Source of the DNA: Candidatus Woesearchaeota archaeon
Lineage (GTDB): Archaea; Nanobdellota; Nanobdellia; Woesearchaeales; 21-14-0-10-32-9
Assembly (NCBI GenBank): GCA_047602735.1
Contig: JBLKOK010000004.1
Location: 13,480-77,479, forward strand
DNA length: 64,000 bases
Reading direction: 5' to 3'
Numbering within the stretch: position 1 is the stretch's first letter; the number at the start of each line of letters is the position of its first letter. Under the pieces are notes generated by a model. It was not told where the DNA came from and searched no databases. It saw nothing but the letters and a program-made list of their open reading frames with translations. The position numbers and the translations under genes were made by a program. Of the stretch, positions 51,931-63,305 are shown piece after piece.

Positions 51931-52586
51931 ATTATACTTTTTTTGTTACAGATGATAACAGTCCATCTCTAAGAAACTTAGAGGTGGATGAGCCTTATCA
52001 TTCTAAAGCGGGTGCGTATCTTGAAGCTAGGGAAAAATATGTTTTAGCTTTAAATATTAGTTCTAAAAAAAATCCTGTTATTTTTGATGTTTGTTTTGGT
52101 CTTGGGTATAACACTGCTGCTGCAGTTGATGAATTATTAAAAGAAAAATCGTCAGCCACGTTTATTTGTTTTGAAAACGATTTATTAATATTAAAAGAGT
52201 TAATAAAATTAGAATATGATTCTGTTGGATTTAAAATAATGCAACAAGCAGTCAAACAATTCTTAGACGGACAAAAAAATATTGTTATACAAAATTTTAA
52301 TTTCTTATTTAAGCTAGGCGATGCTAAAAAGTTAATAAAAAAATATGATTCATTTGCTGACTTCGTATTCTTTGATCCTTTCAGTCCTAAAAAAACTCCA
52401 GGTATGTGGCAAGAAAGCTTTTTACAAGATGTTTATGATGCTATGAAAAAAAATTCTGGTCTAGCAACTTATAGTTATGCGAGGATGGTTCGAGAAAACC
52501 TAAAAAGTGCGGGGTTTACGCTTTTAGACGGGCCTATAGTTGGAAGAAGAAGTCCAAGTACTATAGCTATTAAGAAAACTTTATAA
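51927..52586 (+). CDS. MnmC-like SAM-dependent methyltransferase (Methyltransf_30-like)
   Basis: 219 aa. VCFGLGYNTAAAV and FFDPFSPKKTPGMWQESFLQDVYDAMKKNSGLATYSYARMVRENLKSAGF parallel the MnmC methyltransferase domain. Confidence 0.6.
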   Translation: MNYTFFVTDDNSPSLRNLEVDEPYHSKAGAYLEAREKYVLALNISSKKNPVIFDVCFGLGYNTAAAVDELLKEKSSATFICFENDLLILKELIKLEYDSVGFKIMQQAVKQFLDGQKNIVIQNFNFLFKLGDAKKLIKKYDSFADFVFFDPFSPKKTPGMWQESFLQDVYDAMKKNSGLATYSYARMVRENLKSAGFTLLDGPIVGRRSPSTIAIKKTL

Positions 52587-52590
52587 ACTA
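52576..52590 (+). promoter_or_regulatory. BRE/TATA-like promoter element for tRNA-Pro (aaacTTTATAAActa)
   Basis: TTTATAAA at 52580-52587, 28 nt upstream of the tRNA 5' end. Overlaps the stop codon of the upstream CDS. Confidence 0.45.
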
Positions 52591-52614: not shown

Positions 52615-52719
52615 GGGGCTGTGGGGTAGCTTGGCTAACCTTTTAGGTTTGGGACCTGAAGCCCCCGGTTCAAAGAGATTCGACGGAGACGTAAATCGCT
52701 GAAAGTCCGGGCAGCCCCA
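52615..52719 (+). tRNA. tRNA-Pro (anticodon TGG) with a 31-nt intron in the T loop (position 59/60)
   Basis: Acceptor GGGGCTG/CAGCCCC. Anticodon arm TTAGG-TTTGGGA-CCTGA. T stem 52664-52668/52707-52711. Removing 52675-52705 restores the T loop TTCAAAT. A bulge-helix-bulge motif is visible (see findings). Confidence 0.8.
52675..52705 (+). other. non-canonical tRNA intron (T loop, 59/60)
   Basis: Central 4-bp helix TTCA (52669-72) / TGAA (52700-03), flanked by 3-nt bulges AAG (52673-75) and AGT (52704-06). Both predicted cuts fall after the second bulge nucleotide. Confidence 0.7.
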
Positions 52720-62870: not shown

Positions 62871-62995
62871 CCCTCGGTAGCTCAACGGCAGAGCGTCCGG
62901 CTGTAGATATTGTTTGACTGCTCTGGTTTACAGAGTTGGATGAAAAATGATCAGCCGATACCGGAAGGCTGGGAGTTCAAATCTCCCCTGGGGGA
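62871..62995 (+). tRNA. tRNA-Tyr (anticodon GTA) with 53-nt intron at canonical 37/38
   Basis: Acceptor CCCTCGG/CTGGGGG gives a C1-G72 pair plus A73, the archaeal/eukaryal Tyr identity set. D arm GCTC-AACGGCA-GAGC. Anticodon stem TCCGG/CCGGA. Loop CTGTAGA is restored after removing 62907-62959. T arm GGGAG-TTCAAAT-CTCCC. Confidence 0.8.
62907..62959 (+). other. tRNA-Tyr intron (53 nt; boundary ambiguous by 1 nt because A flanks both junctions)
   Basis: Defined by restoring a 7-nt anticodon loop. An internal hairpin is CTCTG (62921-25) / CAGAG (62931-35). I could not draw a clean bulge-helix-bulge by eye. Confidence 0.6.
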
Positions 62996-63134: not shown

Positions 63135-63207
63135 GCCTTGGTAGTGTAGTGGCCTATCATGAAGCCCTGTCGAGGCTTCGACCCGGGTTCAAATCCCGGC
63201 CAGGGCG
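63135..63207 (+). tRNA. tRNA-Asp (anticodon GTC)
   Basis: 73 nt. Acceptor GCCTTGG/CCAGGGC. Anticodon arm AAGCC-CTGTCGA-GGCTT. T arm CCGGG-TTCAAAT-CCCGG. Confidence 0.9.
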
Positions 63208-63231: not shown

Positions 63232-63305
63232 GGGTCGTTAGCTCAGCCTGGTAGAGCACTTGGCTTTTAACCAAGGTGTCGCGAGTTCGAATCTCGTACG
63301 ACCCA
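63232..63305 (+). tRNA. tRNA-Lys (anticodon TTT)
   Basis: 74 nt. Acceptor GGGTCGT/ACGACCC. D arm GCTC-AGCCTGGTA-GAGC. Anticodon arm CTTGG-CTTTTAA-CCAAG. T arm GCGAG-TTCGAAT-CTCGT. Confidence 0.9.

Follow-up and report, generated by a model that had tools for sequence, protein, structure and literature searches.

The tRNA-Pro locus and its surroundings

The gene considered here occupies positions 52615-52719 on the forward strand of the window (the whole 64,000-nt stretch of Woesearchaeota DNA that was analysed), where it is embedded in a proteasome/exosome gene cluster encoding PsmA, SBDS, Rrp4, Rrp41, Rrp42, RpoK, a Methyltransf_30 methyltransferase (MTase), the tRNA, L37ae, Pcc1 and prefoldin. 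This gene order confirms the setting given in the original prediction, that of a tRNA between rpoK/MTase and rpl37ae inside the exosome superoperon. Read from its 5' end, the gene consists of GGGGCTG, TG, GGGT, AGCTTGGCTA, ACCT, T, TTAGG, TTTGGGA, CCTGA, AGCC, CCCGG and TTCAAA, then the putative intron GAGATTCGACGGAGACGTAAATCGCTGAAAG, and finally T, CCGGG, CAGCCCC and A, with no CCA encoded at the 3' end (Table 1). On re-reading of the sequence, the coordinates assigned earlier to the helices, bulges and stems were all correct. The TATA-box-like element upstream, TTTATAAA, is a probable promoter of the tRNA gene's own, judging by its sequence.

Table 1. Features of the interrupted tRNA-Pro(UGG) gene, in window coordinates
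Feature	Position	Strand	Evidence
TTTATAAA, TATA-box-like element, 28-35 nt upstream of the tRNA 5' end	52580-52587	+	Read in sequence; spacing fits an archaeal TATA box
5' exon, tRNA positions 1-59	52615-52674	+	ARAGORN on spliced sequence; Rfam RF00005 41.2 bits; 95-100% identity across family
Predicted 31-nt intron, T-loop position 59/60	52675-52705	+	Excision restores cloverleaf; inserts at same site in 30 orthologs
3' exon: position 60, T-stem 3' strand, acceptor 3' strand, discriminator A73	52706-52719	+	Sequence, ARAGORN, Rfam
Acceptor stem, GGGGCTG / CAGCCCC	52615-52621 / 52712-52718	+	Read in sequence
Anticodon TGG	52650-52652	+	Read in sequence
T stem, CCCGG / CCGGG, outer helix (h) of the motif	52664-52668 / 52707-52711	+	5/5 pairs hold in 25/25 distinct rows, two compensatory changes
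Central 4-bp helix, exon TTCA (T54-A57) / intron TGAA	52669-52672 / 52700-52703	+	99% of cells paired
5' bulge AA|G, predicted cut after 52674	52673-52675	+	Sequence, folding
Intron hairpin (h'): GATT 52677-52680 / AATC 52694-52697, inner ACG 52683-52685 / CGT 52690-52692	52677-52697	+	RNAfold MFE and BHB-constrained folds
3' bulge AG|T, predicted cut after 52705; T52706 becomes tRNA position 60	52704-52706	+	AG|T in 23/30 orthologs
Discriminator A	52719	+	Read in sequence

The locus escapes tRNA predictors in its unspliced form: ARAGORN called five other tRNAs in the window and missed this one, as did Rfam at its default filters. Once 52675-52705 had been removed, ARAGORN returned a 74-nt tRNA-Pro(tgg) with the T loop TTCAAAT. 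The earlier statement that a cloverleaf forms only after 31 nt are taken out is thus upheld, and the predictor run that had been proposed as a check does call tRNA-Pro(tgg), but only on the spliced sequence. With laxer filters, the tRNA family model RF00005 matched 52615-52719 end to end (model positions 1-71, E = 9e-8) with a score of 41.2 bits, above the gathering score of 29 bits that defines membership. The RF00005 alignment places 32 inserted nt within the T loop; a search of the whole genome gave the same match.

Geometry and folding of the junction

The insert sits between bases 6 and 7 of the 7-nt T loop, next to the 5-bp T stem, such that a helix forms between the first four bases of the loop (T54-A57, TTCA) and intron positions -6 to -3 (TGAA). 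Each predicted cut follows the second base of a 3-nt bulge (AA|G and AG|T), and the two bulges lie on opposite strands with the 4-bp helix between them, which is the arrangement expected of a bulge-helix-bulge (BHB) intron. The 5' bulge is not clean, however, as A52676 and the opposite G52698-C52699 are also unpaired and turn it into a 4x2 internal loop; the T stem (h) abuts the 3' bulge, whereas the GATT/AATC helix (h') does not abut the central helix and 5' bulge. The motif therefore lacks the strict hBHBh' structure and is a relaxed (hBH-like) BHB, and an abutting 5-bp h' was seen in only two of 30 orthologs (G030 and G038). In the original prediction, two 3-nt bulges flanked a 4-bp helix; the helix and the 3' bulge stand as described, while the 5' bulge belongs to the 4x2 loop. 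The weaker GATT/AATC helix that had been placed beyond them is also formed by RNAfold.

Folding of the isolated T arm with its intron, again a check proposed at the outset, puts the BHB-constrained structure 1.1 kcal/mol above the minimum free energy (MFE) structure (-14.4 versus -15.5 kcal/mol). For no ortholog does the constrained fold exceed the MFE by more than 2.1 kcal/mol (range 0-2.1), and in 10 of 21 the two coincide. Loose BHB-like geometry is found at 464,690 candidate sites in this 817-kb genome, and geometry alone is therefore weak evidence. When each of the 8,826 GC-rich BHB candidates was excised in silico and the product run through ARAGORN, new tRNAs emerged at only two loci, tRNA-Pro(UGG) and tRNA-Gly(GCC).

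Conservation and covariation among orthologs

The pre-tRNA was used to search 61 related genomes, further loci were fetched, and the orthologs were parsed for an insert. An insert at 59/60 is present in all 16 genomes parsed from the archaeon's own family (including the source genome), in 14 of the 27 parsed from other families of the order, and in a single one of 20 from other orders of the class. In a seventeenth family genome (G010) the locus is cut by a contig end, and both exon matches are found there ~85 nt apart, implying an insert as well. Intron-less orthologs have the T loop TTCAAAT or TTCGAAT, that is, the predicted spliced product, and excision of the 31 nt leaves a cloverleaf identical to theirs. 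Within the family the exons are 95-100% identical to those of the window gene, and the intron cores are mostly 38-58% identical, with 88% in the closest relative.

The junction itself covaries. In an alignment of the junction segments (25 distinct rows, with pairs counted per cell), standard pairs fill 99.6% of cells; position 57 forms A-U with intron position -6 in 15 rows and G-C in the other 10, with no row breaking the pair, and two T-stem pairs show compensatory changes. The 4-bp helix is kept in 30 orthologs. The covariation score of 0.187, counted over rows that are sequences rather than independent events, with the TTCA and TTCG forms scattered through the families, compares with 0.106 +/- 0.012 for shuffled alignments and was reached by 0 of 500 shuffles, and pairing falls to 62-69% when the 3' partners are slid by one column. 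The intron 3' ends read YGRA-AG|T almost without exception, and the 3' half of the motif as a whole (T stem, AG|U bulge and 4-bp helix) is nearly invariant among orthologs. On the 5' side, the number of bases opposite the bulge differs between lineages (0, 1 or 2).

This variable 5' context leaves some room for removal of the insert in another register (58/59 or 60/61), or by another route such as RNase trimming that leaves the halves to act as a split tRNA. Further points in favour of such a reading are a fifth pair (A58-U) that could form in several members of a sister genus (g3) and the splice site of the tRNA-Gly intron described below, which can slide by one base with no change in the product. 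Against it, only a junction at 59|60 gives the TTCAAAT of intron-less tRNA-Pro orthologs, as a shift of one base either way would yield TTCAAAG or TTCAAGT; the 4-bp spacing of the predicted cuts is that of canonical BHB substrates; and the two halves are contiguous in one transcription unit. We consider a different register or route very unlikely.

It might also be supposed that the insert is retained, giving a mature tRNA with an enlarged T loop or an extra arm. The T loop of a tRNA has to make conserved contacts, T54 with A58 and G18/G19 with Psi55/C56. An insert that ranges from 15 to 123 nt among tRNA-Pro orthologs, with an unconstrained core, is moreover ill suited to a structural role, and the part that is conserved is precisely the endonuclease motif. 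Retention thus appears extremely improbable, and an excised intron at 59/60 is the reading that we carry forward.

Other origins for the insert were considered and set aside: an assembly artefact, as 30 independent assemblies have an insert at this site; a group I or group II intron, for which 31 nt is far too short; and an intron housing a C/D-box guide RNA, as the 31 nt contain no boxes.

Copy number and the tRNA set of the genome

The source assembly measures 817 kb with a completeness of 76.5%. ARAGORN with introns allowed finds 28 tRNAs genome-wide; for proline, Pro(GGG) is the only one besides the window gene. Within this ~76% complete assembly, no second tRNA-Pro(UGG) was found by ARAGORN with introns, by a BLAST-type search, by BHB-guided excision or by a scan for T arms, and relatives of 97-100% completeness have the interrupted copy only. 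The concern raised with the original prediction, that a second, intron-less tRNA-Pro(TGG) would suggest that this copy is decaying, finds no support, as no such copy was found in the ~76% complete assembly or in the near-complete relatives.

These results bear on whether the locus might be a pseudogene, a tRNA-Pro copy that fell out of use once junk sequence had been inserted into it, as its being missed by ARAGORN and by default Rfam, together with the incompleteness of the assembly, might lead one to think. However, it is the sole tRNA-Pro(UGG) found and would be needed for CCA/CCG codons, and near-complete relatives offer no intact alternative. Moreover, the exons keep the level of identity given above in four genera and the insert is free to vary outside the positions of the helix and bulges, a pattern that indicates purifying selection on the exons and so counts against decay; the TATA-like box and the conserved operon context do likewise. 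A pseudogene is accordingly a most improbable explanation. The predictors, the orthologs and the covariation instead support the central claim of the original prediction, a tRNA-Pro(UGG) with an endonuclease-type 59/60 intron in a readable BHB-like motif, and we regard 52615-52719, on the evidence of sequence comparison, as very probably a functional tRNA-Pro(UGG) gene interrupted by a 31-nt protein-spliced intron at 59/60.

In all, 30 tRNA genes can be accounted for in the source genome. ARAGORN, Rfam, BHB-guided excision and the T-arm scan all failed to turn up genes for Ala(UGC), Cys, His, Gly(UCC), Leu(UAG) and Arg(UCU); these may be interrupted more severely, or may belong to the portion of the genome missing from the assembly. 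The T-arm pattern scan for hidden tRNAs brought up only look-alikes in AT-rich coding sequence, and a listing of GC islands made for the same end was too noisy.

Other interrupted tRNA genes

The second gene recovered by excision, tRNA-Gly(GCC), lies at C2:66069-66170, directly upstream of a tRNA-Ile/tRNA-Glu pair, and was likewise missed by ARAGORN when unspliced. It has a 30-nt insert at 59/60, bounded by a T stem ACGGG/CCCGT, a helix TTCG/CGGA and bulges AA|T and AG|T, so that the tRNA-Gly and tRNA-Pro introns share a junction design but have unrelated core sequences. The tRNA-Gly(GCC) intron occurs in all four genomes of the genus that could be parsed (30-40 nt), whereas members of genera g2 and g3 have a 72-nt gene with no intron and the T loop TTCGAAT or TTCAAAT; the tRNA-Gly intron looks like a gain younger than the tRNA-Pro intron.

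A further locus, C2:17998-18135, holds a class II tRNA whose discriminator is G73; ARAGORN's own call for it is 'Gly(acc)' interrupted by a 51-nt intron. Removal of a 31-nt BHB-flanked segment from the 5' strand of the anticodon stem (at ~30/31 or 31/32) and of a 22-nt intron at 37/38 turns it into a tRNA-Ser(GGA), and by its sequence it is probably a two-intron gene for that tRNA. In the window itself, tRNA-Tyr(GTA) at 62871-62995 (Rfam, 52.1 bits) has its anticodon loop interrupted by a canonical intron of 53-56 nt and is followed by tRNA-Asp (63135-63207) and tRNA-Lys (63232-63305).

The splicing enzymes and a proposed route of processing

The genome encodes both of the enzymes called for by a BHB intron. 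A 182-aa splicing endonuclease (EndA) with both EndA domains (PF01974, 101 bits; PF02778, 52 bits) and a TIGR00324 match of 113.6 bits is encoded at C7:96176-96724, and a full-length RtcB ligase at C7:56585-57877 (548 bits). A second, shorter RtcB-like frame of 360 aa with partial PF01139 matches is seen at C4:126847-127767.

The best solved relatives of this EndA are the catalytic subunit of Nanoarchaeum equitans (3IEY_A, E = 3e-37) and the enzymes of M. kandleri, M. jannaschii (1A79, E = 7e-30) and ARMAN-2. It aligns without gaps to 1A79 over residues 42-182. Relative to 3IEY_A it is six residues shorter at the VIPKKGKRS loop (KKGKR); the N. equitans loop spans residues 90-98 and includes K93, K94, K96 and R97 (Hirata 2012, PMC3488258). 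Relative to ARMAN-2 it is two residues shorter at the ASL (GTYKVSEH), where K161 falls opposite the gap, and at that site it exceeds the A. fulgidus and M. kandleri enzymes, which have no loop, by only one residue. By sequence alignment, then, none of the broad-specificity inserts L1 (CSL), L2 (ASL) or L3 (NEQ/ARMAN-2) was found. The core of the protein is 63-91% identical across 80 Woesearchaeota-type genomes, the segment RGVKPGEDHARW being conserved in the 80 homologs, and the N-terminal tail is Lys/Arg-rich (MTEQSKRRKKIK, including KRRKKIK).

A second EndA subunit was sought in the ~76% complete assembly with phmmer --max, with the NCBIfam beta-subunit HMM and with an HMM of 81 homologs, and nothing scored below E = 0.1. 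Of the family's 18 genomes, 16 have one significant PF01974 match each and two have none, while one genome shows an additional match below threshold (E = 0.09); several of these genomes are 97-100% complete, and the near-complete ones have no second EndA subunit. A single gene of ~180 aa, with both an N- and a C-terminal EndA domain and no gene for a second subunit, is the sequence profile of the alpha4 type, and by sequence this is an alpha4-like enzyme without L1, L2 or L3 inserts. It had been supposed earlier that non-canonical intron positions are typical of Thermoproteales and some DPANN lineages that have broad-specificity endonucleases. The lineage is indeed DPANN (Ca. Woesearchaeota), but a broad-specificity EndA architecture was not found: the check on EndA type that had been called for returned one alpha-type gene with neither NEQ-type (L3) nor ASL/CSL-type (L1/L2) inserts and no detectable beta subunit.

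The T arm of the pre-tRNA would thus present, in order, the 5-bp T stem, the 3-nt 3' bulge A-G|U60, the 4-bp helix of U54-U55-C56-A57 with intron U-G-A-A, then the 5' bulge A58-A59|G within its 4x2 internal loop, and the intron hairpin. EndA would cut after the second base of each bulge (52674|52675 and 52705|52706), and RtcB would ligate the exons into a 74-nt tRNA with the T loop UUCAAAU. We infer these cuts and this ligation, which together form by far the likeliest mechanism. The near invariance of the 3' bulge and 4-bp helix, set against the variable 5' side, suggests that the 3' half may be the main determinant for EndA, with the 5' cut placed by the length of the helix. Weighing against this reading are the relaxed motif of the gene, whose BHB fold is not its MFE structure; the apparent lack, in the only EndA found, of the inserts that the literature ties to cleavage of relaxed motifs; the poor performance in vitro of loop-less enzymes on the ARMAN-2 59/60 hBH substrate (see below); and the incompleteness of the assembly, which could conceivably hide a second tRNA-Pro(UGG) or a second EndA subunit.

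Comparison with known intron systems

A canonical 37/38 intron pairs with tRNA positions 32-35, and position 37 is the last before the cut. The canonical hBHBh' intron, exemplified by the tRNA-Tyr of the window, and the T-loop intron have the same geometry when each is measured against its 5-bp stem and 7-nt loop: both lie between loop bases 6 and 7, with loop bases 1-4 paired to intron positions -6 to -3 and the cuts after the second bulge base. The T stem here thus corresponds to the anticodon stem, positions 54-57 to 32-35, and 59/60 to 37/38. The two differ in that the canonical intron is in the anticodon arm and this one in the T arm, where one or two unpaired bases stand opposite the 5' bulge.

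Non-canonical tRNA introns, including some at 59/60, occur in Thermoproteales (Crenarchaeota). They share with the present case introns outside the anticodon loop, several recurring positions and relaxed BHBs; their EndA is a heterotetrameric (alpha-beta)2 enzyme with a Crenarchaea-specific loop, in contrast to the Woesearchaeota genome, in which neither a beta subunit nor a CSL was found.

The closest precedent is pre-tRNA-Cys(GCA) of ARMAN-2 (Ca. Micrarchaeum acidiphilum), whose 59/60 intron sits in an hBH motif (Fujishima 2011, PMC3239211; PMC3488258; PMC5829648). Because of this precedent (PMC5829648, PMC3488258), a T-loop 59/60 intron in a DPANN archaeon is a feature of an already known kind; our literature search found no paper on T-loop introns in Woesearchaeota specifically. 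The two cases agree in the DPANN host, the T-loop site, the relaxed BHB and the use of the T stem as outer helix; for ARMAN-2, removal by EndA has been shown in vitro. They differ in the isoacceptor (Cys versus Pro(UGG)) and in that both bulges are recognizable in the Woesearchaeota tRNA-Pro. The enzymes differ too: ARMAN-2 has an EndA of the three-unit epsilon2 type, which depends on its ASL loop (K161) for this substrate, as opposed to one 182-aa alpha-type protein with no apparent insert.

Biochemical work has tied cleavage of relaxed motifs to such loops. Loop-bearing EndAs are said to be the only ones to cut relaxed motifs efficiently (Kaneta 2018, PMC5829648), and the loop-less M. kandleri enzyme gave no cleavage of a mini-helix mimicking the ARMAN-2 pre-tRNA-Cys 59/60 hBH intron (PMC5829648). 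Similarly, the ARMAN-2 T-loop intron is hardly cut by A. fulgidus EndA until that enzyme is given the ASL (Hirata 2012, PMC3488258). Several DPANN lineages with many disrupted tRNAs have alpha4-type EndAs 'harboring L3' (Kaneta 2018, PMC5829648), which resemble the present enzyme in being the product of a single alpha-type gene in a genome with non-canonical tRNA introns; by alignment, the Woesearchaeota EndA differs from them in lacking the NEQ-type L3 insert.

The apparent absence of every known specificity insert does not fit neatly with the loop-bearing rule. It is conceivable, and we put it forward only tentatively as the less likely outcome, that Woesearchaeales splice relaxed T-loop BHB introns, together with the probable two-intron tRNA-Ser, by means of a plain homotetramer-type EndA without a CSL, ASL or NEQ-type loop. 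If so, the loop-centred model of EndA specificity would be incomplete, or there would be an unrecognized determinant or partner; the Lys/Arg-rich N-terminal tail with KRRKKIK is one candidate determinant. The near-invariant T stem, AG|U bulge and 4-bp helix would in that event point to a 'half-site plus ruler' mode of recognition. A conserved, relaxed T-loop substrate paired with an apparently loop-less alpha-type EndA thus offers a testable challenge to the rule that only loop-bearing enzymes suffice.

Consequences for annotation and intron evolution

As long as the intron goes unrecognized, the whole family seems to be without a tRNA-Pro(UGG), and the genus without a tRNA-Gly(GCC) as well; unrecognized T-loop introns in this way inflate the apparent number of 'missing' tRNAs in DPANN genomes. 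The locus is of value as an annotation correction, as a well-documented example of a conserved and covarying T-loop intron, and for the testable question that it raises about EndA specificity. In evolutionary terms, the tRNA-Pro 59/60 intron is fixed in the family and patchy over the order, while the tRNA-Gly intron seems to have been gained in one genus only, and the family, with two introns of one junction design and unrelated cores, is a clean natural experiment.

Further variation is seen among the tRNA-Pro orthologs of the order. Six other Woesearchaeales have a tRNA-Pro(UGG) with two introns, at 37/38 and 59/60 (L028 in G030, L030 in G041, L139 in G055, L144 in G057, L146 in G027 and L149 in G040), and in G007, G027, G032 and G035 the T-loop introns reach 85-123 nt and form long hairpins on folding.
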